In this document: positions 12,500-57,000 of the stretch, piece after piece
Layout of the letters: the number at the start of each line of letters is the position of its first letter
Position numbering within the stretch: the stretch's first letter is position 1
IMG/VR virus record: IMGVR_UViG_3300020581_000002
Coordinates: 3,247 to 67,246 of that record
Length of the DNA stretch: 64,000 bases
Reading direction: 5' to 3' (one strand)
DNA from: a virus
Notes under the pieces: model-generated
Told to the model about the DNA's origin: nothing
Databases searched by the model: none
What the model saw: the letters and a program-made list of their open reading frames with translations, nothing else
Translations under genes and position numbers: made by a program

Positions 12500-12500
12500 C

Positions 12501-12764: not shown

Positions 12765-12777
12765 GACGCACCTCCCG

Positions 12778-14512: not shown

Positions 14513-14514
14513 GA

Positions 14515-25702: not shown

Positions 25703-25775
25703 CCCCTTGCGCGCCTCTGCGGCTTCTGCTACGCAAGGTTCCGGTGCAATCCTCCCAGGACGTACCACCTTGCCT

Positions 25776-25814
25776 AAAGGCCCCACCGCATAGCCGCGCC
25801 GGTGGGGCCTTTTT
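25776..25814 (+). terminator. Terminator hairpin in the replicase leader (antisense orientation)
   Basis: AAAGGCCCCACCG/CGGTGGGGCCTTT then a T run. Confidence 0.6.
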
Positions 25815-25937
25815 CTTGGTCTGATGGTGCACCCTCGCCGCAATGTCGTCAACACGCGACGCCGCGCAATTTTATTGCTTTTTAAGAGCGACGCGGTAGC
25901 GATTGCGCTTTTTAATGCATTTTTAGCGCGCGAAGGC

Positions 25938-40138: not shown

Positions 40139-41317
40139 CTAGATCACCTTGGGCTCAGTGGAAGCTGGCCACCAGTAGCCAAGCAGCCCCATGGTGGAGC
40201 CGGATATCGGGATGGATTCGATCATCACTTGATCATTTTCATTGCCCCCCAGGACATTGATGCGCCCAGTCGCAGCATCGCCGACATAGAAACCGACGTG
40301 GCCTTCAGTGCCAGATTGCGATCCGCGCCAAAACACGGCGAGACAGCCCAGCCGCGGCGTGTCGATCTTGGTAAAGGCTGGAGAGGTCGTAAAGCTGCGC
40401 GCCATTGCGTTAATGCCTGTGAGCGTGATGCCGGCCTTGCGCAACATCGCCCCGGCAAAGATCGCGCACCACGGCTCGCCATCAGCCCCGTAGCCGGCGA
40501 GATCCACGTATTTCTGAATGCCGTGGTTGTCAGGCAGCTCGTGAAAGCCGATCTCTGCGCGCGCGAGGGTGAGCCATGAAGGTTCGCCTGCCACGCCGGC
40601 AGGGACCGTCGCAGCGGGTGCGCTCAAGCCCTCGAATGCCCAATCAACCTTGCCCTTGCCGTCGATGCCTACGGCACGCGCGGCTGTGGGCGTCAGGTCG
40701 ATGCCGGCCAGGTTGGTGTGACGGCCACCCATGTCGGTGCCGGTCTCGGCTTGGGGCCGTCCGCCGGTCTGCCAATAGGGATCGTGCGTGTTCCAAGGGC
40801 CGACATCGACGATATCGCAGACAGCATCGCCCTTCGGCCCCCACACATGGACCCGCGGCCGCGTGCCTGGGAAACGATAGGGCAGGGCGACACCCATCTC
40901 GGTGTCGTTGATGATGTGGTTGTCGTAGGCGCTGGTATTGGGGTCGGAGGCGCCACCGAATTCCGTGGCCGTGATGCCGGTCTGGCGCGTCGTGGCTGGT
41001 TCAGGGATAGGTTTCGGTGTTGGGAACGGCTGCGGAACGCTCACCGGCGGACTCGGCGCAGGCACGACAGGAACTTGCGGGAGCTGTCCGGCGATCAGTG
41101 CGTCCTTTGCACGACTCCCTGCGCTCGATCCAAGCTCATAGCCCAGCGCCCAGCAGAACCCGGCTGTCAGAACGCCGAACACGCCCCCGGTCAGCGTCAG
41201 GGCTACGTCGCCGGAAACGTCAGGCTTGATCCAACCAGTGAGCAGCAGGTAGCCGAAAACCAGATAGCCAAAGATAACAAGGAATGAAACGATCGCTGTG
41301 CGGGTCCGGTCGCTCAT
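40139..41317 (-). CDS. Endolysin: two N-terminal TM helices + DPBB-like domain + TIGR02594/CHAP-like peptidase
   Basis: TM helices ending ALGYELGSSAGS; VDVGPWNT...GIDLTP; PWCAIF...GHVGF...VLGGN.NDQV. Confidence 0.8.
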   Translation of the reverse strand: MSDRTRTAIVSFLVIFGYLVFGYLLLTGWIKPDVSGDVALTLTGGVFGVLTAGFCWALGYELGSSAGSRAKDALIAGQLPQVPVVPAPSPPVSVPQPFPTPKPIPEPATTRQTGITATEFGGASDPNTSAYDNHIINDTEMGVALPYRFPGTRPRVHVWGPKGDAVCDIVDVGPWNTHDPYWQTGGRPQAETGTDMGGRHTNLAGIDLTPTAARAVGIDGKGKVDWAFEGLSAPAATVPAGVAGEPSWLTLARAEIGFHELPDNHGIQKYVDLAGYGADGEPWCAIFAGAMLRKAGITLTGINAMARSFTTSPAFTKIDTPRLGCLAVFWRGSQSGTEGHVGFYVGDAATGRINVLGGNENDQVMIESIPISGSTMGLLGYWWPASTEPKVI

Positions 41318-41323: not shown

Positions 41324-42715
41324 TTATGCTCCTATGCAAATCCAGGACGCTGTCGTCGCTGCCGCGCTCACGAACCCTATAGTCAAGGTAGTCGCAGTTA
41401 CAGTCATGTTGGTGGTTACGGGAGCAGCAACAGTGCAAAACGGTATGTTTGCAAACGCGGTGCCAAAATTGAACGAGCAAGTGCTGGCATTGCTGGTAAA
41501 TGTCGCGCGTCCAGCAAAATCAGTCGCTCCTGTTCCAAGCGCGAATCCCGCGCAGGTGTTTACGACGGGCACGCTTGTGGAGACGCTAGAGAGATGTCCA
41601 TTATTGTCAAACACGAGCGATTGGTTGTTAAGACCGGCAGCGTTGCTTGTGCTAATTTGCACTTTGGTCGGGACGTTGCTCCCGCTCGGCGCCGCGGAGA
41701 CGCTCGCCTGTATCTGTGCCGCATTGCGCTGAGCGGCGTTCGAGAAGCCGCTGAAATTGACGATGCCGAGCACATCGCTGTTGAGAACCGCGCCGCCGCT
41801 ACGGGATTTTTGAAGATTGTAGGAAGCAGCTGACGCATCGGAAGTCGTATTCTGGTTGACGTGCGCTGGAGTGGCAGTCACGCTTGAGGCGCACGAGACC
41901 GTGTTGTTCGCGTCGATCGTGCAACCGCTCACGGTTGGGGCGCCACCAGCGCCTCCGCCCAACATGACTGCGTTTGCGGTAAGCGCGCCCGACGATGCTA
42001 GCGTGTTAGCGGAGTTGAAATAGGGAACGCCCCCGCTGGTGCCACCCGTGAGTCCTGTACCGCCGAAACCAACGGCAATGGCGGTTCCTTGCCATACGCC
42101 GGTCCCGATCGTCCCAACGGTCGTGATGTTTCCCTGCACCGCCGCGGGGAGCGTGGACGAGATCGACGGCACGCCTCCGGCCGACGTAACGAGCGCGCCA
42201 TTGTTGGCAGTCGCGAGTCCCGACACCACTGCGCCGCTCGCGGCGTACCACGCAAGCTGGTTAATCGTACCGATGTTGACGCCATTGGTGTTGCCACAGT
42301 CCTTGAGGTCCCCGGTAGTGTCTGAGAAGCACGCGAAGTCGTTGATGGTGACAGGGAGGCCGGTAGTGATAGGCAATCCCTGCGTCACACCATTGAGAGT
42401 CCAGGTGAAACCGCCGGTCGCGCCGCCGAAATTATCAAGCGCGAAACCGCCGCCGGTTCCGGTGACGTTGAAACAGAGGCGGTTGTAGGGACCCGAAAAG
42501 AACCCGCTGAACTGGCATATGCCGAAGCCGCTCGCGGTCGCGTTGAGGCTCGTTGGATTGGCGCCCGCGGGATCGGGCCCGCCATCACCGATGACACCCG
42601 TTGTGATCCACTTGGTGACGTGACCCGGCGTGACGTTGCCACTCTGCCGAACTTGCTGCGCGCTCGCGGGGAGAGAGGCGAGGAGAGCGGCTAGAATCGC
42701 AAGGATTTTTTTCAT
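41324..42715 (-). CDS. Tail-fibre-like protein with signal peptide
   Basis: MKKILAILAALLASLPASA|QQ; GTIGTGVWQGTAIAVGFGGTG fibre motif. Confidence 0.75.
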   Translation of the reverse strand: MKKILAILAALLASLPASAQQVRQSGNVTPGHVTKWITTGVIGDGGPDPAGANPTSLNATASGFGICQFSGFFSGPYNRLCFNVTGTGGGFALDNFGGATGGFTWTLNGVTQGLPITTGLPVTINDFACFSDTTGDLKDCGNTNGVNIGTINQLAWYAASGAVVSGLATANNGALVTSAGGVPSISSTLPAAVQGNITTVGTIGTGVWQGTAIAVGFGGTGLTGGTSGGVPYFNSANTLASSGALTANAVMLGGGAGGAPTVSGCTIDANNTVSCASSVTATPAHVNQNTTSDASAASYNLQKSRSGGAVLNSDVLGIVNFSGFSNAAQRNAAQIQASVSAAPSGSNVPTKVQISTSNAAGLNNQSLVFDNNGHLSSVSTSVPVVNTCAGFALGTGATDFAGRATFTSNASTCSFNFGTAFANIPFCTVAAPVTTNMTVTATTLTIGFVSAAATTASWICIGA

Positions 42716-42783
42716 GGAAGCCTCTTTTACGCTACCCAAAACTCGTTTACAACTCGCTGGCTAGCAAACAGGAGAACAAGCGC

Positions 42784-43302
42784 ATGCCTTCCACCTTAGA
42801 GGATTTCGTAGACAATTTGGAGAAAAGCCCAAGCTCCGTCGAGATGAACCGCCGCTTCGACGTGTTCGTGGACGCCATGCGCGATGTGCGGCAGCGACTG
42901 GAAAACCTCGAGCTGGCGCACATCAAGAGCGGAGTCCAGGTGGCGGCGCATGAAACGAAGCTCGTTGACAACGGCGCCGTTATCGCAGCACTGGAGCGCG
43001 ATCGGACCGATCTCAAGAAGCGCCAGGACGCCATAGAGAGCAAACCGCTTGCTCACGATGACCGGCTCGACGAGCTGGAAGCGCGAGTGCGCATAACGGA
43101 AGGTGCCATTGGGGCACTTGGCGGCAAGATCGATAAACCGCCGGCAAAAACGGAAGCGCATCCAATCGCTCCTGTCGCCCAGGCGCGACCCGGAAAAGTC
43201 GAAGCGCCTTCAACTGCTCCTGCTCCGGCAAAACCGTGGTTTGGGGCCCAGAGCAAAGAGCATGAGACCCCGCCCCCGATGGGTGCTCCGGTACCAGCTT
43301 AA
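42784..43302 (+). CDS. Coiled-coil protein opposite to the tail operon
   Basis: AGGAG RBS; 172 aa with Pro/Ala tail. Confidence 0.7.
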   Translation: MPSTLEDFVDNLEKSPSSVEMNRRFDVFVDAMRDVRQRLENLELAHIKSGVQVAAHETKLVDNGAVIAALERDRTDLKKRQDAIESKPLAHDDRLDELEARVRITEGAIGALGGKIDKPPAKTEAHPIAPVAQARPGKVEAPSTAPAPAKPWFGAQSKEHETPPPMGAPVPA

Positions 43303-43787
43303 GACAGGTCAATACCCACGAGGTAGATATCCGCCGTCGCCGCGACGGGCTGAGCCGTCGTAAGCGCGAACCAAATATTGAGCAGCCCGCCGATCGTCCC
43401 GAGGTTCGCGGACGAGAACCGCGTGCCGCTCCCGAACGCCGCGAGCGTGGCGTTAAGCAGCGCGTTGGCGGTCGTGAGCGCCGAGTATGCCTGCGCAGCT
43501 GCCACGATCGGCGTGCCTGCCTTCGCTGCCTGCGGGTAGAACCCGCCCACGGCTGTCGTCAAATTGAGCGAGGCGTTCGTCACTATGATCCCGGTAAGCG
43601 CAAAGGCCGTCACGCGCTGCGGGATCGCGATCGGCTGGTCACTGGTCGTGTTGAAGTTGGCGCCGCGTAGCGAGGCGAGAACGCGCTGAGCTGCGAGCGC
43701 TGCGCCGCCGTCACCGATGACGCCTGGCGCGACCCACACAGGCAGATGCCCTGGAGTAATGTTGCCGCTTTGCTGGACAAAACCCAT
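43299..43787 (-). CDS. Virion/tail protein (QSGNITPGH module, no signal peptide)
   Basis: N-terminus matches the mature N-terminus of 41324..42715. Confidence 0.7.
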   Translation of the reverse strand: MGFVQQSGNITPGHLPVWVAPGVIGDGGAALAAQRVLASLRGANFNTTSDQPIAIPQRVTAFALTGIIVTNASLNLTTAVGGFYPQAAKAGTPIVAAAQAYSALTTANALLNATLAAFGSGTRFSSANLGTIGGLLNIWFALTTAQPVAATADIYLVGIDLS

Positions 43788-43790
43788 CGG

Positions 43791-44891
43791 CTACACCACG
43801 ACCATGGTACTGTCATCGGGACCAAAGACTCGCACGCGCCTAATGCTCAATGGCCAGTCGCCGCCACCCGGTTGGTTGCCGCAAGTGATGTAAAGCGAAT
43901 AGCCCAAGTAGTCGGGAGTGTTGGTCACATTCTCGATTGAGGAGAACGTGCCAGCCGGCGCTTCCGGTGGGTAGCTCGGCGGCGTCGTGCGCGAGAACGT
44001 CAAGCGATTCGGCGCGAACTCTTTGTCATCAAAATAGCGCTCCATGAACCCCGTGCCACCTCCGGTAACGGTGTCGATGAGCAAGTGGCCGACCGTGTGC
44101 AGGTCCGTACCATCGAATTTCGGATTGCCAAGGTCGGCGAACGTCGGTTGCGGGAACTGTCCACTCTGCAGAGGTGGATATGTAGTGACACCCTTTGAAA
44201 AATCCCCACAGTTGAAACCGATCGACCCGTTCTGTCCGGCCTCGACGGGAAGGCCGGCGAACCGCGTTTGTGGGAAAAACTCCAAGAAATCGATTTCCGT
44301 GCCTAGAATACCATTCCACCAATCGACACCCCAAAAAGCAGGAAAGCCCGCGCCGCCGCGCGCGAGGTGCTGGTCGAACGTGAACTGAAAATCAATGTAC
44401 CAAGGCGGACGGAAGAAACGACCGTGATTATTGGCTCTAAGCACCGCCATGTTTGCGGCGCTAGCATTCCCCAATGAGCCAGGGAACCAATTGCTGGCCA
44501 GCGTTGGCTGGTTATTTTGATAGTACGCGCCGGGTCGCGCCTGGGCGATCCGAAGGATGCCGTTGCTGACCGACAACGCGCTCGCAGGAATGTTCGGGAT
44601 CAGGCCATAAGCAGGGTTTTCTCCCGGCTGCCCAATGTAGCTGTTGGCAACCCACCAGTCCGTTGTCGCGGTCGAGGTGTTGGCGTTGTTGATGTCGATG
44701 CGCGACAGGTCGGTGAATGGACCAGACTGAAACACAAGTTTCGGCAGGCCGTGGGCAACCGCCTGCAGTGGAGGCGTCGCATCGAGCGCGACTTGCATGG
44801 GGTCGAGGATCGCTTTCAGCGCGTCATCTGACGCGCCGATGCTTGTTCGTATCTGCTGCAAGGCTGCAAGCGTGGCAGGTTGGATGCTCAT
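43791..44891 (-). CDS. GH16-like glycoside hydrolase domain protein
   Basis: FPAFW and EIDFLE (ExDxxE) motifs, HTVG, IRRVRVF; GGAGGT RBS. Confidence 0.7.
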   Translation of the reverse strand: MSIQPATLAALQQIRTSIGASDDALKAILDPMQVALDATPPLQAVAHGLPKLVFQSGPFTDLSRIDINNANTSTATTDWWVANSYIGQPGENPAYGLIPNIPASALSVSNGILRIAQARPGAYYQNNQPTLASNWFPGSLGNASAANMAVLRANNHGRFFRPPWYIDFQFTFDQHLARGGAGFPAFWGVDWWNGILGTEIDFLEFFPQTRFAGLPVEAGQNGSIGFNCGDFSKGVTTYPPLQSGQFPQPTFADLGNPKFDGTDLHTVGHLLIDTVTGGGTGFMERYFDDKEFAPNRLTFSRTTPPSYPPEAPAGTFSSIENVTNTPDYLGYSLYITCGNQPGGGDWPLSIRRVRVFGPDDSTMVVV

Positions 44892-44904
44892 GGTGAGCAC
44901 CTCC

Positions 44905-47349
44905 CTACGCGGTTACAGGAGGGGCATTGCCGGGCGACGAGTTCCAGCCTGACGCAGTCGAGACGTACCAATTGCCCTGGTTGTTCTTGGTCCACACGAT
45001 GCCGGTTTTGTCGATCGTGAGCGAGGCACCGCTTCCATTGGCGAACGGCACGTTGTCCCGGAGAATGACGAAGCCGTAGGGAGCCGTAGCGCCAAGCGAC
45101 CAGACGTGGCCCGCAGCATCCGTTATGGTCGCACCGCCTACAGGCGTCGTGCCACTGATCGTAGTCCCAGGAGGAGACGTAGTTCCCGGAGGGAGTCCCG
45201 CTGCGTTGGCGAGGATTGCAGCGAACTGCGTCAAGGCGCTCTGGATTTGCCCGTAAACGCTTTGTAGCTGCGCGAGCGTCGTCGGGTCTATGATGGCGGC
45301 CATGTTGATCCCCTTGATGTGGATGCCCGTCTTGCAGTTCTCGATTGTAACACGAGCGAACCTGACATCGGTAGCCCCAGCCGGCAAATCGACTAGCAGC
45401 GTCGGATGCGTAGCGCGCGACTGCGCCAACGCGGCGCGTATCTGGTCATCAGTCGCCACCACGGCGTCTGCGATGGGCGTCGAGCCGTTGGTCGTACCGT
45501 AGAGGCGGTTCTCCAGCGTCCCAGCCCCCGCAGCGTATGGGACCGTAGTGAACGCCGACAGGAAGCTGCATCCACCCACAAAGCTAGCGTTGTTGGCGCT
45601 GCCGCCCAACGTCGTACTCAAGACCGTAGCGGAACCGGAGACAGCAACAGCCCCGGCTGATTGCATGTTGTGGACGCAACCTTCGACCGTCACTTCGCCT
45701 TCACCCATCACCGACACCAGGACCGGATTGATAGCGCCGCCTGTAGGCGTGTCGTTCCACATGTCACGCACGACGACGTTTGCGCTGTCGGCCAACACGT
45801 TAGTCACGTTGAGGTCGGCAGAGCCGGCGAGCATCGCCATCAGTGATGCAACGCCACCTTCAATCTGGGCGCCAACGGCGCAATTTTCAAAGTTGAAATC
45901 CCGCAACTCGACGAGCGCGAAGTTCACACCATCGACGAAGATGCCAGCGGCGCTCGCTGCGATGAAGATCGGCTCTTGCAAGAGGACGCGGCCAGAAAAT
46001 GCGTCCTCAATCGTTATCGCCGTATCAGCGGCATTCTTGACGTGCAAGCCGCTCAACGTGACGCGTGATCGCCCTTGAATGTCGATGCCGATCCCCGGCG
46101 TGTTACCGCAGTCGATGATCGTATTCGGCCACCCATCGCCGATGATCTGTACATCGCACACCGGCACCGTGATCGGCTTGCGCAGCGCGAGCGTGCCGAC
46201 CGGGATGTGCACGACTGGCTTGCTGCCATTGAGCGCGGCGGCTTGCGTGATAGCGGCTTGGAGCGCGGTGCCGTCGTCCGTGATCGGCACTTCGAAGACC
46301 TGACGGCTCGTCAACAGGGGCGTAGGCGGCAACACCGGCATCAATGGCAACGTCAGCGAGGGCACAACCACATCATCGACAGAGCGCAACCGACTGGCCG
46401 TCGGCGATACCGTGTATTTGTTGCCGACAGAGATGATGTCGCCGCCGTTGGACGAGGTCACGGTGACGGGGCCGGCAATCGTGCTATCCGTGATCAGCAG
46501 CGGACCGCCATTGCCCATGTAGATGCCGCTGTCGGCAACGCAGTTCTGCATGCGAATTTGAGCGGCGTTTGTGTAATAGAAAACCGCATTGAGAAACTGC
46601 CGCGAGCCCTGCGAATAGCAATCACGAAAATTGAAATTTCCGGTGTTGCCAATTTGGATATCAGCAAATGTCGAACCGAGGAATTGGCAGCCATAGGCGT
46701 GGAACATGCCCGCGCCGTCCGCAATATTGTCCTGGGCGCTGTTGCTTAGCGATGTTCGGCAATTCACAAACTCACAGAACCAGAACCACCAATCGAGGCA
46801 GTTGAAATTGCGCAGTAGGACGCCGTTTTTGAGCCCGAGGAACTTGCAGCGCAGAACCGAACTCTCGGCCTCGCCGATACCTGCTTCTCCAGCCCTTATG
46901 CCTATCGAGGCGTTCTGAAAAATAAGATCCGCGTACTCGTTGCCAGTACCAAACTGACGCGGTGGTCCGCCAACGAGCGCATTCTGATCCACCAAAATGG
47001 TCGTATTGCGGCTCCCGTCCAGGGTCAGCCGACCAAGTCGCCCGTAGGCGCAACCGTCAAGATGCAGCAACGTACCGTCTGCAGCACCGCCCCACTTGAT
47101 GGTCGTCGTCGCGGGATCGGCCCCGATTATACCCGCCCCGAGACCACCGAGCAGCGTGACGGTCTGTGTGACGAGATACGTCCCGGCTGGAATGAACAGA
47201 TTGCGCGGTCTGCCAGTTGCCGTGAGATCGCTCACCGCCGCCTGCAAGGCGGCCGTATCGTCGAATATGCCATCGCCCTTGGCGCCGTAGTCACGCTTGA
47301 GGTTAGACCAACTGGCGAAAGGACCGAAGAACTTTTCCTGCGCACCCAT
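44905..47349 (-). CDS. Tailspike/depolymerase with two pectate-lyase-like beta-helix units
   Basis: DYGAKGDGIFDDTAALQAA...FIPAGTY and DDGTALQAAI...HIPVGT. Confidence 0.85.
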   Translation of the reverse strand: MGAQEKFFGPFASWSNLKRDYGAKGDGIFDDTAALQAAVSDLTATGRPRNLFIPAGTYLVTQTVTLLGGLGAGIIGADPATTTIKWGGAADGTLLHLDGCAYGRLGRLTLDGSRNTTILVDQNALVGGPPRQFGTGNEYADLIFQNASIGIRAGEAGIGEAESSVLRCKFLGLKNGVLLRNFNCLDWWFWFCEFVNCRTSLSNSAQDNIADGAGMFHAYGCQFLGSTFADIQIGNTGNFNFRDCYSQGSRQFLNAVFYYTNAAQIRMQNCVADSGIYMGNGGPLLITDSTIAGPVTVTSSNGGDIISVGNKYTVSPTASRLRSVDDVVVPSLTLPLMPVLPPTPLLTSRQVFEVPITDDGTALQAAITQAAALNGSKPVVHIPVGTLALRKPITVPVCDVQIIGDGWPNTIIDCGNTPGIGIDIQGRSRVTLSGLHVKNAADTAITIEDAFSGRVLLQEPIFIAASAAGIFVDGVNFALVELRDFNFENCAVGAQIEGGVASLMAMLAGSADLNVTNVLADSANVVVRDMWNDTPTGGAINPVLVSVMGEGEVTVEGCVHNMQSAGAVAVSGSATVLSTTLGGSANNASFVGGCSFLSAFTTVPYAAGAGTLENRLYGTTNGSTPIADAVVATDDQIRAALAQSRATHPTLLVDLPAGATDVRFARVTIENCKTGIHIKGINMAAIIDPTTLAQLQSVYGQIQSALTQFAAILANAAGLPPGTTSPPGTTISGTTPVGGATITDAAGHVWSLGATAPYGFVILRDNVPFANGSGASLTIDKTGIVWTKNNQGNWYVSTASGWNSSPGNAPPVTA

Positions 47350-48851
47350 TAATTTTGCACCAGCTTGTCAGTCAAAAGCGTTTGCCATACCTGAATGTTT
47401 TTGACATGCATGGGCCAATTTCCAGCTGTCGTTCCGACATTGCATGCCGCCGTCGTAAACGAAGCTGTGCAACCGCTGCTTATAATCAGAATGAATCCAT
47501 TGCTACTATCTGCTTGTGTAAATGCCCCATCATAAGGGTTCATTGTGCAAGTTGCTTGTTTGCCACTTCCTTTGGCGAAATAGGTGCAGTTATTAGCATT
47601 GGTTGCGATCATCAACGATGACGCCACGGCTCCTCGGTTGAAGCTCAGAGCATAGACGCCAACCTTACCTGGAGTGCCGCTGGTTTGCGATGCGACCGTT
47701 GTCGCCGCTGTCGTGGAGTTGCCGTTTCCTATGTAGCTACCAGTAGCAATCGACCCAGTAGACAGCATTTGCGTCACATGAAGCGTCACGCCGTCGCTAT
47801 CGATTGAACCCGTAAAGACTGCATTACCGGGGCAGGTATCTGCGTCTACCAGATAGCCGTAAAACCCTACTCCGTTGTTTTTTGCCGGGGGCACCCACAA
47901 CTGATCAAAAGTGTGAAACGTATTACCATCTAAAACCGGATTGCATTCCGTCGAGCGCAGCGGCGGCGTGCCAAAGTAGTCCGAAAAAATCGAACCGCCC
48001 GAGCATGAGGCGCCGCAGAGATTATCGTGGAGGAAGTTGTTGAGCAACACGCTGCCATTGTTCGAGAAGCAGTCGCAATTATCGGTTTCGATAAAATTAG
48101 AACCAGGTGTCGTTCCGGGCCACGAAGTTAACCACCACGCAGGCCATCTCCAAGGCGAACCAGCTATGCCGTTCGGAGCCTTGGTCTCATCGAATGAAAC
48201 GTACGCGCGCGCGTAAAGACCATTCTTGAAACTAATACCCCGATAAGTTTCCGGTACACCCGAAGGCACATTCAGCGAGGTCCATGTGCTTATGCCGTAA
48301 TTGCTATCGCCCTGTGAAACATTAGTTAGTGTCAACCCGGTAACTGGATCAACCGATAAAGTGTTGGTAGCTTGAATGATCGAAGCCATGAACTCACAAC
48401 TAGCGAGCGTCTGCGCGGGACTAACCGTATATGTCCCCGTTCCGCCGGAACCTGCCGTAATAGTCGTCCCTATTGACGGAGCGCACCCTCCGGCTCCGAC
48501 ACCAGGACTCAATGTCATTCCAACTTTGAGTACCGCAGAAGACACAGCCGTTACTGTCATCGTGCCGGTGTTGGCAATCGAGGCAGTCAAATCTACACGA
48601 GTCAAACCCTGAGTACGCCAATTAAATCCAGCAGCATTAGTAGCGCCAAGATCTATCGTCGCAAGCGACGTCATCGGATCAAAAAATGTGCACGTATTAA
48701 ATCCAAAAGCACCAGCTGTACTCGGAATTGGGTCAGTACAACCTTGTGAAGAACCGCTTGAAAAAACTTGAAATATAGCAAATCCTGCCATCGCTAATTT
48801 AGCGATCAATAGAATACCAATAATTGATAATGCAATTAGAGAACGACGCAT
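47349..48851 (-). CDS. Signal-peptide, Cys-rich GH16-like protein
   Basis: MRRSLIALSIIGILLIAKLAMA; WPAWW, IETDNCD, FHTF, VKNIQVW; two inserted tail-type modules. Confidence 0.7.
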   Translation of the reverse strand: MRRSLIALSIIGILLIAKLAMAGFAIFQVFSSGSSQGCTDPIPSTAGAFGFNTCTFFDPMTSLATIDLGATNAAGFNWRTQGLTRVDLTASIANTGTMTVTAVSSAVLKVGMTLSPGVGAGGCAPSIGTTITAGSGGTGTYTVSPAQTLASCEFMASIIQATNTLSVDPVTGLTLTNVSQGDSNYGISTWTSLNVPSGVPETYRGISFKNGLYARAYVSFDETKAPNGIAGSPWRWPAWWLTSWPGTTPGSNFIETDNCDCFSNNGSVLLNNFLHDNLCGASCSGGSIFSDYFGTPPLRSTECNPVLDGNTFHTFDQLWVPPAKNNGVGFYGYLVDADTCPGNAVFTGSIDSDGVTLHVTQMLSTGSIATGSYIGNGNSTTAATTVASQTSGTPGKVGVYALSFNRGAVASSLMIATNANNCTYFAKGSGKQATCTMNPYDGAFTQADSSNGFILIISSGCTASFTTAACNVGTTAGNWPMHVKNIQVWQTLLTDKLVQN

Positions 48852-48861
48852 TAATCACCTA

Positions 48862-49773
48862 TTAGCTAGTTGGGCAAGAGCCATGAACTGTCATAAAATA
48901 AGTACAAAGACGACCTTCAAGGTTTGTAACATCAGTAGATGATAAACTGCCTCCGATAGTGATTGCACCAAGCTGTAAAATACTCCCGAAATTCACCGTT
49001 GATCCGGCAACACGCTGAGCAAGGATGGCAACGTTACCATTGAGAACGGCAGCAGACGATTCTGTGCTATCGCCGACGTCGGATGCATTCTTGTAATGTT
49101 GAACTGCACCAGCACCAGAACGATTAACTACATAATGTCCGATGCTGTCAGCATTCAATATCCCTGTAGCGTTTGTTGCGGAATTAGCATCACCGTAAAA
49201 GTTGCCATCATTGTATTTCGGAAACAGTCTCGTGGAATTAGTTGCCGCCAACACAAGACCCATAACCGTACCGCCCGATGCGCCGCTTGTCGCATTTGTG
49301 AAACTCCATGCCGATATGTGCGAAGAATTCTGCGTGAAATGCGGTGAAGTTGCAGTGGAAGGATTGAAACCCGTATCGATATAGATCGTTGTGCTGGCAT
49401 CGACACCGCTCCATCCATTATTTGCAGAAAAACAAGCAGTAGCCCCAGCGCAACCTGTTGAAACATTGCCGTTTGCGGTTCCATTAAAAGTGCCAGGATT
49501 GATAGCATTGACGAGAGAATTTGCACTAGAATTGATGGCAAAAATATAAAGCACATCAAGCTTGGCAAACACGCCATCGGTCACGAGCCCGCAGATCAGT
49601 GTCGTAATCGCCGCGGAGTTCTGACCGCTGTCGAGCATACCGTTATACGTAGTCGCTTGAGAGCAGCCGCCGCCTCCTGCCGAGGCCGAAACGAGCGGCA
49701 GCCAGCCAGCAGCGCGAACAGCGACAGCAGCAAGTACAAAGAAGACACCAATGACGGCGGCGAGCCGTTTCAT
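48862..49773 (-). CDS. Signal-peptide beta-sandwich (LamG/ConA-like) tail-module protein
   Basis: MKRLAAVIGVFFVLAAVAVRA; GVFAKLDVLYIFA, YIDTGFNPS, ITIGGSLS. Confidence 0.7.
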   Translation of the reverse strand: MKRLAAVIGVFFVLAAVAVRAAGWLPLVSASAGGGGCSQATTYNGMLDSGQNSAAITTLICGLVTDGVFAKLDVLYIFAINSSANSLVNAINPGTFNGTANGNVSTGCAGATACFSANNGWSGVDASTTIYIDTGFNPSTATSPHFTQNSSHISAWSFTNATSGASGGTVMGLVLAATNSTRLFPKYNDGNFYGDANSATNATGILNADSIGHYVVNRSGAGAVQHYKNASDVGDSTESSAAVLNGNVAILAQRVAGSTVNFGSILQLGAITIGGSLSSTDVTNLEGRLCTYFMTVHGSCPTS

Positions 49774-50030
49774 GGCTTCTTTTCCTCCCCGGCATTTTCC
49801 TTCGTTTTCTCGGCCGCATCGCGCTCGGCCTTCAACGCCTCGGGTAGCTTGACCTTCGCAAGATCACAAAAGTCCTGGAACCTCATGCGAAAGCCGTAAA
49901 GAGCCGCTTCACAGAGCAGCGGAATGATCGTCGCTTGATCGGCAAGCGTCAGCGGAATGTTGACCGTGGACTGCTGAGCGCCGGCACAAGATGGCGTAAG
50001 CAGAGTCAGAATGACTAAAATTCTTCGCAT
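49770..50030 (-). CDS. Small signal-peptide protein
   Basis: MRRILVILTLLTPSCAGA|QQ; GAGGT RBS. Confidence 0.65.
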   Translation of the reverse strand: MRRILVILTLLTPSCAGAQQSTVNIPLTLADQATIIPLLCEAALYGFRMRFQDFCDLAKVKLPEALKAERDAAEKTKENAGEEKKP

Positions 50031-50038
50031 ACCTTACC

Positions 50039-50383
50039 TCAATTCGGCGCGATCGGCACATAGGGCACGGCGTTCTGTAGAACCTGCAATTGAAACGCGT
50101 TGACTTGCCCCACGAACGTATCCCGCAAAGTTCCGGCCCAATAATTGAGAACTTGCGCAGTCGTGCACGTTCCGTTGATGCTGGTATTGCAGCCGGATTG
50201 GAAGACCTGCACGATATTGGTTTGCAACGTGTTAGGCTTAGCCGTTCCCGCATCAGTGAAAGTCCGCGAACAGCCTGCCATACAAAGACCAGCAGGCGTT
50301 GTAAGCGTGATCGTGATCGTGTCAGCAGCGGCCGGCAGGGAAAGGCAGGCGAGTAACGAAGCGAGCAAGAGTTGTTTCTTCAT
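50039..50383 (-). CDS. Small signal-peptide protein
   Basis: MKKQLLLASLLACLSLPAAA|DT. Confidence 0.7.
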   Translation of the reverse strand: MKKQLLLASLLACLSLPAAADTITITLTTPAGLCMAGCSRTFTDAGTAKPNTLQTNIVQVFQSGCNTSINGTCTTAQVLNYWAGTLRDTFVGQVNAFQLQVLQNAVPYVPIAPN

Positions 50384-50387
50384 GTGA

Positions 50388-51842
50388 TCAGTCCGTTTTC
50401 CATGAGGTTCCATCACAGTAGACCGAGGCGTGCGTGGTTCCGCCACTAACATAGGCGGTTAGAAACGTTGGCGTCAAAGCGTCGGAAACAGCGCCGCGGG
50501 ACCCTTCTGCGGCGCCATTGCATGTTGGCAACGCTGTACCGGCAGCGCTATAGATCAATGTATGTTGAAGTAGATTGGCGACCGTCACTTTTTGTGTACT
50601 ATCAACAGTTAGACCCGTCGTTCCTGAGTTGACCGATGTTCCAGTACTGCCAGCCGGCGCAGTTTGCACAACGAACGAACCGCCAGCGCCAGTTCCCTTT
50701 CCTGGACTGACAAGTAATGTAAAATTCTTGCCAGCCTGATCAGCCGTACCGCCTGCTAATGCTCCCTGCGTGCGAAAAATTTGCGCGACGATAGCTGCAT
50801 TCGTATCAACATCCACAGCACCTTGCTGTAAACTACCATTAGCAGGAGAATCTAGCTGCGTGCCACCATTGCGAAGTTGAATAGTTGCAGTATTATTACT
50901 CAAAGCAAAATTTCCGGTGCCAGTATATGAACCGGCACTAATATTACCAACAACAATATTTCCGCTAAAGGTATGAACACCGGCACCTGTTATACTATAA
51001 TCATATCTTAATGTTCCACCTACAGACAATCCTATTTTACCTGCCGCTGTAACATACCACCCCGTATTATTCTCAAAATTATTCATTGCAAGCGACGGAG
51101 CCGCTGCCGAACCAGCCCCATTCACTGCAATCGAATCAGAGCCAAGCGCCCAAGCTTTAGTAAGCGTGACATTGGTTCCAGCTACTGGAACCTTAATATA
51201 TGCCCCATAATAATTCGTGAACGTCGTCGCATTCGATGCGGCAACGGTATTGCCGCCGAAAATATCTGTATAAGCATTCGCAACTGTACCGCTTGATGTG
51301 GTATCTGTCATCGTCGCCGTAACGTTCGCGTAACGAATGCCAGCCGTTGTCCACGCTGCTGCGGAGATATTACCGCTCAAGCCGAAACTGCCACCTGCGA
51401 CAGTGGTCTTTCCATTAAGCGTAGCCGTCCCGGATGTACACAGCACATCCGAACCTATGGTGCAGCCACCGATCGCAACCGAGGTCGCAGTCGCAACACC
51501 GAGAACAGGTGTAATCAGCGTCGGCGAGGTCTGCATCACCGCGACCGTGCCGGTGCCGGTCAGCGTATATTCTCCAAGCACTCCCGCATTGTCATAGAGA
51601 ATGCGCGTCGTCGTCCCGCTCGTGATCGTGCTGGTTCCAACAGTGAGCCCACCGCCACTGCCACATGCGCCGGAGCCCACAGTACCGCTACTGATCGTGA
51701 GGCATTGGCCGTTTGACCCGCCCGTAACAGGCGTCGTATTGACGACAATCGTTGTCTGCGCCGAAGCCGTTATAGTCTGCGGGTAGGCAGGCGACAACGC
51801 GAAAAGTAGGCCAAAAAGAACACCAGCCAAGGTTCGTCGCAT
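50388..51842 (-). CDS. Tail-fibre-like protein with signal peptide
   Basis: MRRTLAGVLFGLLFALSPAYP|QT; TGTGTVAVMQTSPTLITPVLGVATATS motif; C-terminal LPTC...VSDA...VYCDGTSW. Confidence 0.75.
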   Translation of the reverse strand: MRRTLAGVLFGLLFALSPAYPQTITASAQTTIVVNTTPVTGGSNGQCLTISSGTVGSGACGSGGGLTVGTSTITSGTTTRILYDNAGVLGEYTLTGTGTVAVMQTSPTLITPVLGVATATSVAIGGCTIGSDVLCTSGTATLNGKTTVAGGSFGLSGNISAAAWTTAGIRYANVTATMTDTTSSGTVANAYTDIFGGNTVAASNATTFTNYYGAYIKVPVAGTNVTLTKAWALGSDSIAVNGAGSAAAPSLAMNNFENNTGWYVTAAGKIGLSVGGTLRYDYSITGAGVHTFSGNIVVGNISAGSYTGTGNFALSNNTATIQLRNGGTQLDSPANGSLQQGAVDVDTNAAIVAQIFRTQGALAGGTADQAGKNFTLLVSPGKGTGAGGSFVVQTAPAGSTGTSVNSGTTGLTVDSTQKVTVANLLQHTLIYSAAGTALPTCNGAAEGSRGAVSDALTPTFLTAYVSGGTTHASVYCDGTSWKTD

Positions 51843-53197
51843 CACATCACCATGCCATGAATAAAGCCCGTAGTCGCAAGCGTCAACGTCGCGCAAGTCG
51901 TGGAAGAAATTGCCGCAGTAATCCCTACCGAATAAACAGCAGGCGGTCCGCCAGCATAATTAACCGATCCAAAACCGCCGGCTGAAATCGGAATACATTC
52001 GACCATATTGCCAGATGCAACACCTGCCGTAGTTGATCCATTACTCGGTGCAGAGGTCGAATTGAACACCATCAACCAGCAAGCCGCCGAACATTCAGCG
52101 TAGACACTATAAAGATTGCCGGCCGCATTTTTAAGAACAAGTGATGACGCTGCCGAACCACCAACGACCGGTGTTATGCCAACCAATGCCGAAGATGACG
52201 GAGCAGGACCAACAAATGGAACAGCGTTCGCCGCAGCAGCAGGACCAAGCGTGATAATGCCTGGACTATCCGGCCGGAGATCGACCACAAGCGCCGTATT
52301 AGTTGCCGTAACCGGAGCAGTGTTTACTGCAACTTGACCTGTCGTAGTTGCAGTACCACCAAAAGCTGCAACATTAACTGGAATATTAGATTGATTACTC
52401 GCAACTACAACTGGCGACGAATTCGCCATCGTCGCTTGACCATTAACGTTCGCATTCGTGACATCGACATTGAGCGCGTTCGATGTCGATGCAATCACGT
52501 TGCCCGCGCCGTCTACAATCTGGGATTTTTGCGAAGCGTTCGTCTGGTTGGCAGAAGTCGCGAGCGTCGAGGTATTGAGATTGGTCCCAGCATTTGCGGT
52601 AACGGTAGGCGTATTTGTTATAAAAGCATTGACGCCCGGCACAAGAACCGCCCCCGGCGACGTGCCGTAATTCGCCATCGCGCCGAGGGTGCCGCCAGCC
52701 CAGGTCGTTATCGCCGACGATCCTCCGCCGCCTCCGCCACCACCGCCGGAACCCGTAGCGAGTCCCGTTCCGCCCGAAAGAACCACGAGGTTAGAAACCG
52801 TCCCCGTCTGGTCGATACAAGCGATATTGGTGTTGGCCCCAACCGTGTAGGAAAAAAACCCTCCTGGCGCTATCTGGTCTTCGTTTGCAACCGCCGTCGC
52901 GCCGAGCGTGCAAGAAACCGCTGTCGTCCCGGTGTTGTAAGCGACAACAACAATTCCGGCCGGCAACGCGGTCGTCGCCGAAGATCCGGTAGCGGTCAGC
53001 GTCGCGTAGGCGCCTCCTGGCGCGAAGCCGCCCACTGTGGCGCTAACCGTGGCGGTGACAGGCAAAGGGTTAGACGCCGAGACAGGGGGGCAGTTATTAA
53101 CCCCTAGCGTCACACACGGACGCACAATAGCTTGCGCCGACCCCTCGACATAACTTAGTAAAAGCAGGGCGATGGCAAGCCCGAGTTTGCGGAGCAT
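51842..53197 (-). CDS. Tail-module protein with signal peptide
   Basis: MLRKLGLAIALLLLSYVEGSA|QA; GQATMANSSPVVVASNQ motif; C-terminal VLKNAAGNLYS beta domain. Confidence 0.75.
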   Translation of the reverse strand: MLRKLGLAIALLLLSYVEGSAQAIVRPCVTLGVNNCPPVSASNPLPVTATVSATVGGFAPGGAYATLTATGSSATTALPAGIVVVAYNTGTTAVSCTLGATAVANEDQIAPGGFFSYTVGANTNIACIDQTGTVSNLVVLSGGTGLATGSGGGGGGGGGSSAITTWAGGTLGAMANYGTSPGAVLVPGVNAFITNTPTVTANAGTNLNTSTLATSANQTNASQKSQIVDGAGNVIASTSNALNVDVTNANVNGQATMANSSPVVVASNQSNIPVNVAAFGGTATTTGQVAVNTAPVTATNTALVVDLRPDSPGIITLGPAAAANAVPFVGPAPSSSALVGITPVVGGSAASSLVLKNAAGNLYSVYAECSAACWLMVFNSTSAPSNGSTTAGVASGNMVECIPISAGGFGSVNYAGGPPAVYSVGITAAISSTTCATLTLATTGFIHGMVM

Positions 53198-53199
53198 AG

Positions 53200-53430
53200 C
53201 TATTTTTCCTCTTTTTCCTCGCTCGACTTTGTTGGAGGAATGAGTTGGGTATTCGCCTGCGAGATCAGTTTTTGCAATAAGGGGTTAACCTCGTTCCACG
53301 GCGCCTCGCCAAGTTTTTTTATGATCTGGTTGGCTTCAGAAAGCGTTATGGTCCACGTAACATTGCGCTCTTGCGCCAAGACTCCCGCGGGCAGTAACAG
53401 CAATATCGCGATAAACGTGCGCCACATCAT
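53200..53430 (-). CDS. Small signal-peptide protein
   Basis: MMWRTFIAILLLLPAGVLA|QE; LGEAPWNEVNPLLQKLISQ. Confidence 0.65.
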   Translation of the reverse strand: MMWRTFIAILLLLPAGVLAQERNVTWTITLSEANQIIKKLGEAPWNEVNPLLQKLISQANTQLIPPTKSSEEKEEK

Positions 53431-53681
53431 CGCTTTCTCACAATCCAGTTGGCCGCAAGCACAAACAGCGCGTAAATCGAAAGCGAGGTGATCTGGTAGG
53501 CATTCGGATCGGGCACCGACCACCACAGCCACCACGCGCCGAACACAGTGAATAGACAAAAAAGGTCGGCAGCAGCCACGAGAGCGCGCTGAGAGAGGGC
53601 GCGCAGTGCCAGCATCACGCCGGCGACGGCCGCCGGCTCGGCGTCACCCTCTTCAACTATCTCGAACTTTCGCTCGGCCAT
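53427..53681 (-). CDS. Two-TM membrane protein
   Basis: ALRALSQRA...FCLFTVFGAWWLWW..PDP..YQ...YALFVL. Confidence 0.7.
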   Translation of the reverse strand: MAERKFEIVEEGDAEPAAVAGVMLALRALSQRALVAAADLFCLFTVFGAWWLWWSVPDPNAYQITSLSIYALFVLAANWIVRKR

Positions 53682-54042: not shown

Positions 54043-57000
54043 TTACTCGATTCCCTCCAACGCGGGTTCTTGCGCCTGCTCTAGCCCCTCGCCCACCCCC
54101 GCCCCAACAGCGCCACCGCGCTGGAGCGCCTTTTGCACTTGTTGGCGCACTATCTCGCGTGCCGCGGGATCACCATCCAGTCCTTTCTGCACCCAGCGCA
54201 AGAAAGCGGGCGATGTCGCGAGCTTGCGCACGAAACCGTAATAGCCGCCGAGCATCGCGCGCCCGACTGCATCTGCGCCAGGGACAACCTTGGTGGGCGC
54301 TGTCAACAACTGCGCAATTGCGCCGCCGCGCCCCAGGATCGATGCCCACGGATGCTCCACCTTGGACACTGCTGCCATCGACTTGGCGGTGCCCTGCGTG
54401 CCCCTGGTTGACATCAGGAAATCCATCTCCCTGGCGAGCTGCTGCATCTGGTCGAGCGTCACGCCGGGGAACATGACCCGCTGCACCTCGGGCGATATCT
54501 TAGCGAGCCGGGCACCGGGCTCAAGCGTCCCCTGGAGGATGCGCTGCGCATACACCTGTCGGAGCATCTCGAACTCAGGTGAGTCCTCGCCGAACCGCGC
54601 GGCGGCGGCGAGGATCAAATCTTCCGAACCGAGGATGCGATCAACCGCCTCAGCGGCGCCCGTCGTGGGTTTGAGCAGGAACCCGAACGGACCGGCCAGC
54701 CGCTTGGCGCGCAACTCGGCCGACTCCTTCTTCGCTGCCGCCTCGATCCCACCCATCTCGCGCTTGAGCGTCCCCAAAGGGTCCTGCTTGGCGACCGCCT
54801 TGGCGGCGTCACCCGCCGCCCGCGCACGGGCGATTATCTCGGTCACGGTGTCGCCCGGCCGCACCGGTATCTCCAGGCGCCCGCCCAGCATCTCGATGCG
54901 CCGCGCCTGCTCGATGAGCTTCGCCGACGCCTCGCGCCCGTGTACCGCCTCCAGCATATCACCGGAAGCATTACGATGCCGCTCCAACACCTGTCGAGCA
55001 AAGGCGCGACCGTCGATCTGGTCTGGAACTAGAGTCTTACTAGCGTTCAACATGGCTTGTACGTCGGCCGCCTTGACGCCCGCCCACAGGTTGGGACCCA
55101 CCAGACGCGCAACCGTCCTGGTGAGGTCCGAGCGTCCCTCCCTGACGAGCGTGTCGAACAGGTTCTTGGGATCGGCCGGCATGCCTGACTCAAGCCCGCT
55201 TACCACCGCCTGGATATGCTTGTCGGTCAGCGGCCTGATGGCATCGCGGTAGAAATCATCCGCCGCCCGCAGCGCGCGCGCCGCCTCCTGCAACTCCGGC
55301 ACCGCGCCGGGATCGTTGAGAATCTCATCCACCCGGTTGGCAAAGAACTTGAAGGTGCCCTGCTTCACGTCGGGCGTGAGATCGAGATGATTGTAGTTGG
55401 CACGCAGCACAGAGCGCAGATTGTGCAGCTGCCCAAACGTAGGCGTCGCGGGCTCCTTCTCCCACTCGCCGGTCGGCACGCCATGCTCATCTAGCTTCTG
55501 GACGCCCGCGAGGTCGCGAATCTGCTTGACGATCGAGGGGTAGCGGTTCTCGAACCCTTCCGGCAGCTCGGCCAGGAACTGCGCGGCGCGCTCAGGGAGC
55601 CCCGCCATTTCAGGCAAGTGCTCGCCCGCAAGCGCATCAGCCTCGTTGTACATCTTGCGCGCACGTGCCTGGATACCTTGCTTTACCGCCTTGAGCTTCT
55701 CGCCCACCATCTGCCACAAATCACCGGAGTTGCCCCCTGCCTTGGACACCTTGACGGCACCGTCAATGTCCTGTTGGATGTCCCGAAACCCTGCATCAAT
55801 CAGGTTTTCAGCGGCTTTTCGTGCCGCGACCTCGGCTTGTCGCAACCCCTCAACGCGCACGCTGTGCTCGCCCACCTGACCCACAGCCCTGCCGAGCGCA
55901 GCGCCTACCTCGCCCTCCCGCCTCGCCGCATGCTCCGCCGCGAGACGCGCGTCCTGCTCGGCAGCAACCGCCCGCGCGTGAGCAAGAATTGCCGTGCCGG
56001 CACGCTCCGTGGACACCGCCTCGGTCGGGCCCGCTACCTCGTGCTCCGGCACGCCCAGCTCGCCCAGGATACCACGCTTGGAGCGCTCGTAATGTTCCTC
56101 CGCGGACTGTAAAAGCGGCTTTTGCGTGTGAAGTGCCGGGTCGAACACCTCAACCACGTTCTGGATGTGCGGCGCCTCTTTGGCCCATCCTGACGGCGGC
56201 ACCAACACGCCCTTATCGGCGAGCCCGACCGCCATATTCAATCCTTCGGGGTCGGCACCAATAAATTGTGCCACCGCGCCAGGCAGTCCCAACTTGGCGC
56301 CACGCATCCGGGGCAGCACGGAAGCAACACCGCGCCCCACCGCGGTCCCGGCGCCCGCCATCACGCCCGAAGTGCCCAGCTCCATTGCCTCCTCGCCCGC
56401 GGAACGATCGTAGACCCCCGCGAGCGCCATGATCGCGTCGTTAAACCCCTGGCCCACCGCGCCGCCCACTGCCGCGCCACCAACCGCTCCCGGCAGGCCG
56501 CTCACGAGACCGCCGCCGATCTCGCCCACAACCGCGCCCACGGTCGGAAAAGCACCGCCCACCGCTGCTGCGCCGGCCGCCTTCCAATTCTCGGCGAGCG
56601 ACTCGTGCTCCTCCGACGGCCCTCTGGGACGACGGCGCGTGCCGTTCCGCTCCTGGACATAGAGGCCCTTCGGATCGTTCCTGATCTCAGCGCCGGGATA
56701 ACCGCGCTCCAAAGCGCGACGCTGTTCCCGCTCGTTGACCGCCATGTTGAACAGTGAATGAGTCGTGAAATCCACGCTCTCATAGCGCGGCTTGGTGCGC
56801 AGATTGCCGCGCGGATCGAGGAAGTCGGCGCCCTCGGGCACTGCTTCATAAGAATCTTCATCCGCGACCGACCACGGCTTGGTTCGGGTATTGCCCTGCG
56901 GATCAAGGAAGTCGGTACCAGGAGAAAGGGCGTCGTACTCCTGCTGGGACGCTACCTTCGGAGGCGGCGCCTTGTAGGCAATATCGGGCCGGTCCCGCAT

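Follow-up and report, generated by a model that had tools for sequence, protein, structure and literature searches.

Tail-fibre-like proteins carrying predicted export signals and paired cysteines in a complete 67-kb phage genome

Fibrous adhesins with a conserved base and a variable tip have been described both on bacterial cell surfaces and on phage particles. The MAT (mosaic adhesive trimeric) fibres of Bdellovibrio bacteriovorus (e.g. Bd2439, Bd1334, Bd2133 and Bd3182; Caulton et al. 2024, PMC10769870) combine a signal peptide, a conserved domain of about 130 aa and a variable tip, and are displayed on a Gram-negative cell surface. Their tips come in versions with and without a terminal S74 domain, with TNF-like or sandwich folds and disulfides. 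Classical Caudoviricetes tail fibres and tailspikes, such as the T5 L-shaped fibre pb1 and the K1F endosialidase with its S74 chaperone, likewise join a conserved N-terminal particle-binding part to variable tips, but they are not known to carry signal peptides, have few and unpaired cysteines, and assemble in the cytoplasm. Phage proteins using the host Sec pathway do exist: the coat proteins pIII and pVIII of filamentous phages, the T4 antiholin RI with a cleavable signal peptide (PMC8385771), secreted and SAR endolysins, and spanins. Finally, the Ena endospore appendages of Bacillus (PDB 7a02, 8pdz) are disulfide-linked jelly-roll pili.

We analysed a 64,000-nt window (positions 3,247 to 67,246 of the IMG/VR record IMGVR_UViG_3300020581_000002) from a complete, circular, soil-type tailed phage genome of 67 kb with T7-like gene order, encoding a major head protein, a DNA polymerase and a primase-helicase. 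A preliminary description of this sequence had proposed that eight virion-type proteins encoded between 41324 and 53430, several with tail-fibre motifs, begin with Sec signal peptides and, in seven cases, have even numbers of mature cysteines. The observation itself is confirmed. The eight proteins (A to H) and their neighbours are listed in Table 1.

Table 1. Genes of the locus and its surroundings (positions within the 64,000-nt window; cysteine counts of A to H refer to the mature region)
Feature	Position	Strand	Length (aa)	Cys	Description
Lysin	40139..41317	-	392		TM-anchored lysin or tail lysozyme (CHAP-like; PF05257 below cut-off, phrog_1259 1e-25); start of the lysis region downstream of A
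A	41324..42715	-	463	10	Signal-peptide fibre; conserved ~120-aa beta-rich N-domain with 4 conserved Cys, variable fibre and tip
Mini-fibre	43299..43787	-	162	0	Signal-less; N-terminal 28-residue motif equals the first residues of mature A
369-aa protein	43791..44900	-	369	2	Signal-less; no family hit
Tailspike	44905..47349	-	814	14	Signal-less; pectate-lyase-type beta-helix (PF12708 1e-18, PF13229; tail spike/fibre PHROGs); start overlaps the stop of B by 1 nt
B	47349..48851	-	500	14	Signal peptide or signal anchor; weakly related to the 369-aa protein (26% over 161 aa, E 0.002)
C	48862..49773	-	303	6	Signal-peptide protein (phrog_26223, 6e-12)
D	49770..50030	-	86	2	Signal-peptide protein, paralogue of H; possible periplasmic assembly factor (inferred only)
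E	50039..50383	-	114	4	Signal-peptide protein
F	50388..51842	-	484	6	Signal-peptide fibre-type protein
G	51842..53197	-	451	8	Signal-peptide protein; N-terminal Cys loop, jelly-roll domain, Gly-rich linker, low-confidence fibre-like middle, TNF/C1q-like C-terminal sandwich (predicted)
H	53200..53430	-	76	0	Signal-peptide protein, K/E-rich C-terminus; paralogue of D (BLASTP 28% over 75 aa, E 4e-5); start overlaps the stop of TM84
TM84	53427..53681	-	84		Conserved membrane protein preceding the signal-peptide genes in all relatives
Giant proteins (two)	54043..60325	-	1014 and 1082	0	In the position of T7 internal core proteins; mark the late virion operon just upstream

Each of the eight ORFs begins with one to three K/R residues, an uncharged hydrophobic core of 8-18 residues and a small-x-small site. 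The predicted sites from A to H are ASA/QQ, AMA/GF, VRA/AG, AGA/QQ, AAA/DT, ASA/QT, AQA/IV and VLA/QE (slashes mark the predicted cleavage). All eight N-termini fit a Sec/signal peptidase I signal (basic n-region, h-region of 7-15 residues, small residues at -3 and -1) by a heuristic of our own, used in place of SignalP. As a control, this heuristic flags 253 of 390 family N-termini, but only 1 of 390 internal windows and 22 of 390 shuffled N-termini. A clear Shine-Dalgarno-like sequence lies upstream of six of the eight starts, those of E and H being weaker. In a GC3-filtered, and therefore approximate, gene list, 1 of 53 ORFs outside the cluster (the TM-anchored lysin) scored as signal-like at its own start, against 8 of 11 genes within 41324-53430 (Fisher p of about 5e-7, computed with 1 of 50 for the rest). 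A twin-arginine signal has an S/T-R-R-x-F-L-K motif, a long n-region and a weakly hydrophobic h-region; judged from the sequence alone, B, D and F start with MRR, but the signals here are short (18-28 aa) and strongly hydrophobic.

The mature cysteine counts agree exactly with those given in the preliminary description. This places C15 of D and C13 of E inside the signal peptide. In close homologues the former is a Tyr and the latter sits elsewhere, so that neither is a lipobox cysteine. Three corrections are nevertheless required. First, the mini-fibre, presented as a signal-less and cysteine-free contrast, was a selective control: the signal-less tailspike and 369-aa protein both contain cysteines, and the 14 of the tailspike show that cysteine richness alone is not specific to exported proteins here. 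Second, only A, F and G, and more weakly B and C, exhibit fibre-type evidence; the small proteins D, E and H exhibit none, so that "eight virion-type proteins" overstates the case. Third, the hydrophobic stretch of B is long (about 27 residues with one K) and could be a signal anchor. The N-terminal segments might be membrane anchors, or segments inserting into virion or host membranes, rather than cleaved Sec signals, the fibres remaining tethered to the cytoplasmic face or inner membrane until assembly. A few G homologues also have anchor-like N-termini that our heuristic did not flag. We consider this reading very unlikely, since the other seven proteins have a short h-region, a small-x-small site and Gln, Asp or Ala at +1, typical of signal peptidase I substrates, and since cysteine parity tracks the signal and the mature end matches the Met-proximal end of signal-less forms, as described below.

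Conservation of the signals in homologues, which had been set beforehand as a test, was then examined. Among the best-scoring homologues of A, F and G, a signal is present, by the same heuristic, in 90 of 150, 58 of 120 and 111 of 120 cases, respectively, and is kept across very divergent homologues while its sequence drifts. Signal-bearing homologues of A comprise 80 with even, 7 with odd and 3 with zero cysteines; the corresponding numbers are 54, 3 and 1 of 58 for F, and 110, 0 and 1 of 111 for G. Signal-less homologues are near random (even to odd, 31:22, 18:27 and 8:1), and parity is near-perfect only in the signal-bearing ones. These counts come from related sequences and are not independent. 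Cysteine columns also co-occur, for example columns 96 and 127 of G (both in 35 sequences, one only in 0, neither in 3) and columns 129 and 140 of A (both in 17, one only in 1, neither in 9). At the level of loci, signal-bearing genes with mostly even cysteine counts follow the TM84 homologue in relatives whose 1014-aa protein matches at only 48-54% identity. G-like genes directly follow it in the related loci L004, L005, L007 and L016, and the homologue of E in locus L002 keeps the signal with a different sequence. A natural control is provided by a related phage (L021), where the A-type N-terminal domain occurs on an ordinary tailspike-type protein without a signal, with no upstream in-frame signal, and with non-cysteine residues in all four cysteine columns. 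The predicted cleavage site leaves 3-10 residues before the QSGxVTPGH motif, the same distance as from Met1 in the signal-less forms.

Several features point to a fibre nature. A and G have conserved N-terminal modules joined to variable C-terminal tips, the classic build of virion fibres, and are encoded in the late tail operon. Some homologues of F and A end in a Peptidase_S74 domain (PF13884), although this domain gave no Pfam hit in A, B, C, F or G, nor in any of the window's own proteins. The AF2 model of A (pLDDT 77) matches the Bdellovibrio MAT fibre tips Bd2439 and Bd1334 best (Foldseek E 2e-5 to 8e-3) and, more weakly, the T5 L-shaped tail fibre (E 0.05, TMt 0.32). The C-terminal part of C recurs at the end of a 702-aa signal-bearing protein in the relative G001 (61.8 kb, 96% complete by CheckV). 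This relative has no signal-less fibre candidate above 200 aa: its four candidates of 387-758 aa all carry signals and 6-16 cysteines. The A N-domain is nearly absent from 185,579 species genomes (2 MAG contigs) but lies on 13 viral contigs, most of them 53-67 kb. No cultured relative was found, the only hit in cultured phages being to 40 residues of a Bradyrhizobium phage protein.

We therefore interpret the locus as the receptor-binding module of a tailed phage with T7-like gene order, most of whose fibres are made as Sec pre-proteins. Comparison of the sequences shows that the proteins carry conserved, cleavable-type signal peptides, that cysteines are gained and lost in pairs only when a signal is present, and that A and G have the modular build described above. 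Export, folding and disulfide formation in the periplasm are inferred from these patterns, and as an inference are well supported. What follows is inferred with less support: the capsid, tail, tailspike and mini-fibre would assemble in the cytoplasm, and the exported, disulfide-hardened fibres would dock by their N-terminal anchors only once holin lesions or lysis mix the two compartments. D, H and perhaps E may help periplasmic assembly, which is speculative. The pay-off would be disulfide-stabilised adhesins of extracellular grade for a harsh soil or peat setting. We assign this reading a probability of roughly 0.45. The interpretation in the preliminary description, namely that the proteins are exported and oxidatively folded and then either join the virion at lysis or form a host-surface or free-standing appendage, is thus partly supported: its first step is strongly supported by comparison, whereas for the second the sequence evidence only leans towards virion fibres, without showing where the proteins end up. 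No mechanism is known by which periplasmic proteins join cytoplasmic tailed particles, and dilution at lysis would make it inefficient.

Alternatively, the fibres may be exported but never bound to the virion, acting on the envelope of the infected cell or being released, in the manner of MAT fibres. They could mask or destroy receptors (for superinfection exclusion, or to keep progeny off debris), strip surface glycans, or make infected cells stick to their neighbours. The signal-less tailspike, 369-aa protein and mini-fibre could serve as a full receptor-binding set, the tailspike and mini-fibre being in this view the real virion receptor binders; a trimeric receptor binder of 160 aa is feasible, as in the lactococcal phage TP901-1. 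The mini-fibre is conserved in distant relatives (53% identity, as much as core genes), where it lies just upstream of the signal-bearing fibre, as a dedicated virion receptor binder for a conserved receptor might be. The G family, being almost always signal-bearing, may simply be a secreted protein family. This reading has the MAT precedent and the match of the A model to MAT tips in its favour, and requires no new assembly step. Against it are the signal-less anchor domain on the tailspike-type protein of L021, the extreme N-terminal motif shared by mature A and the mini-fibre, the near absence of the family from cellular genomes, and the heavy investment of four to eight late-operon genes (over 10% of the genome) in an accessory role. 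We consider it less likely than docking on the virion, though possible.

The codon usage of the block suggests a further possibility. B to H have a GC3 of 0.43-0.63 (0.43-0.52 for B, C, F and G) against 0.68-0.79 elsewhere, which would fit a recently imported accessory cassette, perhaps of cell-surface adhesins, MAT-like conversion genes changing the surface behaviour of the host and unrelated to phage adsorption. A resolvase-type recombinase is present, so a temperate lifestyle is possible. However, the genes are translationally coupled inside the late operon, with start and stop codons overlapping at TM84 and at the tailspike, and signal-bearing fibres are a constant of the whole phage group, including members where they are the only fibres. 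No integration site or lysogeny module was encountered, in an analysis not specifically directed at them. We regard this conversion scenario as very unlikely.

If docking on the virion is correct, a broader and slightly more tentative reading is that a widespread group of soil phages builds its virion in two compartments, with head, tail and a cysteine-free stub fibre made in the cytoplasm, and variable receptor-binding fibres, perhaps with small helpers, Sec-exported, disulfide-bonded in the periplasm and clipped on only after the holin opens the inner membrane. Signal-bearing forms made up about half to nine-tenths of the best-scoring homologue clusters of three fibre families, and this would then be a common but overlooked assembly route, and the likely evolutionary source or sink of cell-surface fibres such as the MATs. 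Tailed-phage morphogenesis is taught as a purely cytoplasmic process. Fibres that must pass through Sec and the Dsb system would make Sec, LepB and DsbA phage host factors and possible resistance points, add a timing step to assembly, and explain how environmental phages obtain such disulfide-stabilised adhesins. Annotation would be affected too: a signal peptide is commonly read as evidence against a structural role, so that such fibres may be mislabelled in viromes. If the proteins instead act on the host envelope, they would represent a large and unrecognised class of late phage envelope-remodelling adhesins. A literature search found no report of this arrangement, although the MAT-like proteins listed in Supplementary Tables 3-4 of PMC10769870 might already include viral ones.

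Compared with the described systems, the locus resembles each in part. Its N-terminal Cys-containing peptide and jelly-roll domain give G weak fold matches to the Ena appendages (Foldseek E 0.02, 27% identity over 91 columns; Z 7.1), but these scores lie in the range of generic jelly-rolls, G also has a long fibre region and a TNF-like tip, and there is no evidence that it polymerises. Inovirus coat proteins are true virion proteins that use Sec and assemble outside the cytoplasm, but inoviruses extrude through the envelope and have no cytoplasmic capsid; the other Sec-exported phage proteins are lysis regulators, not structural fibres. With classical tail fibres and tailspikes the locus shares the conserved N-terminal module and variable C-terminal part, the position after the internal core proteins, the S74 domains of some homologues and the T5 fibre fold match, while differing in its signal peptides and paired cysteines. 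The closest architecture is that of the Bdellovibrio MAT fibres, on the basis of the domain order of A and the fold of its modelled tip, with a weak alignment of the N-domain of G to the Bd2133 tip (Z 5.7), and this may form a concrete evolutionary bridge between phage fibres and secreted bacterial fibre adhesins. MATs are chromosomal genes of a predatory bacterium displayed on its own surface, whereas the genes described here lie in the late tail operon of a phage.

The record, a single contig of 67,246 bases of which the window covers 64,000, has identical first and last 127 bases, so that it is a circularly closed assembly of about 67.1 kb. It is a phage, encoding a family A DNA polymerase, a primase-helicase, a helicase, a major head protein and a tailspike, together with a lysis region that contains a TM-anchored CHAP-like lysin and a PG-binding protein. 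No tRNA genes were found. On the minus strand the late genes run in a T7-like order: first a tail protein of roughly 766 aa that crosses the circular junction, next two Cys-free giant proteins of 1082 and 1014 aa, then two small proteins (81 aa and the membrane protein TM84), then the genes for the eight signal-peptide proteins (here A to H, in order of increasing start position) and their neighbours, and finally the lysis genes. A membrane-containing (PRD1/PM2-like) virion was considered and rejected, because of the match of the 350-aa protein to a major-head-protein PHROG and because of the T7-like gene order. The features are listed in the table.

Features of the phage genome and of two related loci (positions are those of the window unless a locus is named)
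Position	Strand	Feature	Evidence or remark
757-1809		Major head protein (350 aa)	phrog_9953, 2.4e-8, near full length
11756-17356	-	Resolvase-type serine recombinase; NAD-dependent sugar epimerase-like gene; glycosyltransferase-like gene	PF00239, 9e-30; phrog_540, 4e-53; PF03214 RGP, 5e-8
21723-22868	-	DUF932 protein among the early and replication genes	1e-39
23384-25855		Primase-helicase
27798-29594		Family A DNA polymerase
33469-35127		Helicase
42784-43302	+	172-aa coiled-coil ORF in the gap between A and the 162-aa gene, on the opposite strand; may be a real inserted gene	Weak DUF7310 hit, 1.2e-5, below cut-off
44905-47349		Pectate-lyase-type tailspike	PF12708, 1e-18
47349-53430	-	Signal-peptide block (B to H)	Deviant GC3
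49770-50030	-	D, small signal-peptide protein	Paralogue of H; K/E-rich tail; just upstream of C
53200-53430	-	H, small signal-peptide protein	Paralogue of D; K/E-rich tail; just upstream of G
62259-63935	-	ORF listed as 558 aa	Runs across the circular junction to about 766 aa
63874-64000		End of the contig	Identical to the first 127 bases of the contig
L006:18951-19757		~250-aa signal-peptide protein of a relative, next to the lysis genes	Mature end starts ADMPVKAPP
L007:21082-21834		~250-aa signal-peptide protein of a relative, next to the lysis genes	Mature end starts ADMPVKAPP

The observation made in the preliminary description was confirmed: all eight ORFs that it named start with K/R residues, an uncharged hydrophobic core and a small-x-small site, and six of them are preceded by a clear Shine-Dalgarno-like sequence. 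The Cys counts of the predicted mature proteins (A to H) are 10, 14, 6, 2, 4, 6, 8 and 0, as had been stated. D and E each have a further Cys inside the signal, but this residue is not conserved in close homologues, which led us to reject a lipoprotein reading of both. Outside the cluster only the TM-anchored lysin scored signal-like at its own start, that is 1 of 53 ORFs of an approximate gene list, against 8 of 11 in the cluster (Fisher p of about 5e-7, computed with 1 of 50 for the rest). The heuristic that we used to call signals is crude but specific, as it flagged 253 of 390 family N-termini, 1 of 390 internal windows and 22 of 390 shuffled N-termini. Two corrections are needed. The contrast drawn in the preliminary description with a signal-less, Cys-free 162-aa protein was selective, since the signal-less tailspike has 14 Cys and the signal-less 369-aa protein has 2. 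Its interpretation of all eight as virion-type proteins is only partly supported, since there is no evidence of this for D, E and H. The placement of D and H resembles that of fibre chaperone genes.

Pfam and PHROGs searches with the eight proteins returned a single family, phrog_26223 for C. Searches of the PDB sequences with phmmer found nothing meaningful for A, B, F or G, and a tblastn search of 50,697 cultured phage records found nothing for A and a 40-residue hit in a Bradyrhizobium phage for F. The ESM Atlas gave only unnamed viral clusters, and a lead to Mtd_N at 0.80 is at chance level. An "EIDFLE" motif in the 369-aa protein resembles GH16 but has no Pfam support, and we make no claim on it. 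The signal-peptide proteins of the related loci L006 and L007 are porin-like and had the appearance of Rhizobiales outer-membrane proteins, but they gave no Pfam hit, and an argument on the host based on them was abandoned.

A search with the 1014-aa protein recovered seven IMG/VR loci. In the distant ones (48-54% identity) the genes after the TM84 homologue again encode signal-bearing proteins, most of them with even Cys counts and with quite different signal sequences. A profile of the N-terminus of A found 13 viral contigs, most of them of 53-67 kb, and only two MAG contigs among 185,579 species genomes; so this is a phage family trait and not a host gene. In two of the related loci, L012 and L014, the module shrinks to four elements: the TM84 homologue, a signal-less mini-fibre of about 160 aa, one signal-bearing fibre of 726-758 aa with 10-16 Cys, and the lysis genes. 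We rebuilt the whole 61.8-kb genome behind L014 (96% complete according to CheckV). Its four fibre candidates (387, 505, 702 and 758 aa) all carry signals and 6-16 Cys, three of them share modules with A, C and G, and no signal-less fibre-like protein above 200 aa exists in this genome.

The coupling between signal and Cys parity extends over the families. An exhaustive HMMER search with A found 2,290 cluster representatives at E-values up to 1e-3. Of the best 150, 90 are signal-bearing, with a median of 10 Cys (80 even, 7 odd and 3 zero), while the 60 signal-less ones run 31 even, 22 odd and 7 zero. For F (the best 120 of 713), 58 are signal-bearing, with 54 even, 3 odd and 1 zero, and the signal-less ones run 18, 27 and 17. 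For G (the best 120 of 640), 111 are signal-bearing, of which 110 have even counts and the remaining one has zero. Cys columns appear and disappear together, for example the G columns 96-127 (both present in 35, one only in 0, neither in 3). These sequences are related, and binomial p-values computed on them overstate their independence; even so, parity is kept while the counts range from 2 to 22. Other N-terminal fibre motifs also occur directly after signal peptides in the wider family of A (among others in the representatives P0141, P0149, P0162, P0179 and P0247), examples being QQFFDxNGNPL, NHxxPxGGGPGF and ATTAFVQ. Signal-bearing versions therefore exist for several fibre-anchor types, not one.

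The related contig L021 provides a natural control. It encodes two proteins with the N-domain of A but with no signal and no in-frame upstream extension; in both, all four Cys columns hold other residues, and one of them continues into a tailspike-like region. The signal-less 162-aa protein of the window, the mini-fibre, starts with the same motif four residues after Met1, and it is 53% identical in the distant relative. So the predicted cleavage recreates the N-terminus that signal-less fibres have naturally. This argues that the signal is removed and that the domain does the same job, anchoring a fibre, in both forms. The alternative that the hydrophobic segments are uncleaved membrane anchors appears very unlikely.

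An AF2 model of A, built with 60 homologues, reached a pLDDT of 77. The model of G (pLDDT 67.5) shows two confident sandwich domains joined by a low-confidence stretch, as is usual for a fibre modelled as a monomer, and its matches are to generic jelly-roll, Ena, PirA and TNF/C1q-like folds with Z up to 8.2. An Ena-like polymer for G was accordingly not retained, its scores being only those of generic jelly-rolls. Complex predictions with three copies of the mini-fibre and three copies of A residues 20-145 returned a score of 0.00 without an answer and are used neither way. Some homologues of F and A end in Peptidase_S74, the tail-fibre chaperone, whereas the window's own proteins do not.

What the comparisons establish is the conservation of the predicted signals in relatives and the association of even Cys counts with them; Sec export, disulfide bonding and the final location of the proteins are inferred from these sequence data. 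The inference that the proteins are Sec-exported and disulfide-bonded is well supported. Our best guess for their fate, with a probability of about 0.45, is that they are the variable receptor-binding fibres of the phage and would dock through conserved N-terminal anchors after the holin or lysis mixes the compartments. In support of this are the L021 control, the shared N-terminal motif, the relative whose only large fibres are signal-bearing, and the translational coupling inside the late operon. The main rival, which we consider less likely, is that they stay with the host envelope or are released, in the manner of the Bdellovibrio MAT fibres, for receptor masking, glycan stripping or adhesion, while the tailspike and the mini-fibre serve the virion. 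An imported cassette of surface adhesins is a remote possibility, prompted by base composition: B, C, F and G have GC3 of 0.43-0.52 and D, E and H of 0.62-0.63, against 0.68-0.79 for A, the tailspike, the head and the core genes, so that the signal-peptide block looks compositionally foreign or under a different regime. The recombinase of this phage could be an integrase or an invertase, and the epimerase-like and glycosyltransferase-like genes beside it may mean glycan or DNA modification.

Tail fibres and MAT fibres are both already described; what differs here is the presence of predicted Sec signals on the tail-fibre-like proteins of a tailed phage. Full-text literature searches, including PMC3556154, PMC9144972 and PMC13266070, gave no report of Sec-signal tail fibres in tailed phages, within a collection that misses most subscription journals. 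The pattern is strong, widespread and directly testable. The closest known system is that of Bdellovibrio, for which 21 MAT fibres have been described (PMC10769870). Their overall architecture matches that of the family of A, with homology of the N-domains only a possibility, but in a cell rather than a phage. This precedent shows that a Gram-negative cell can export fibres of this build and display them on its surface, and it also makes the reading in which the phage proteins remain with the host envelope a credible one.
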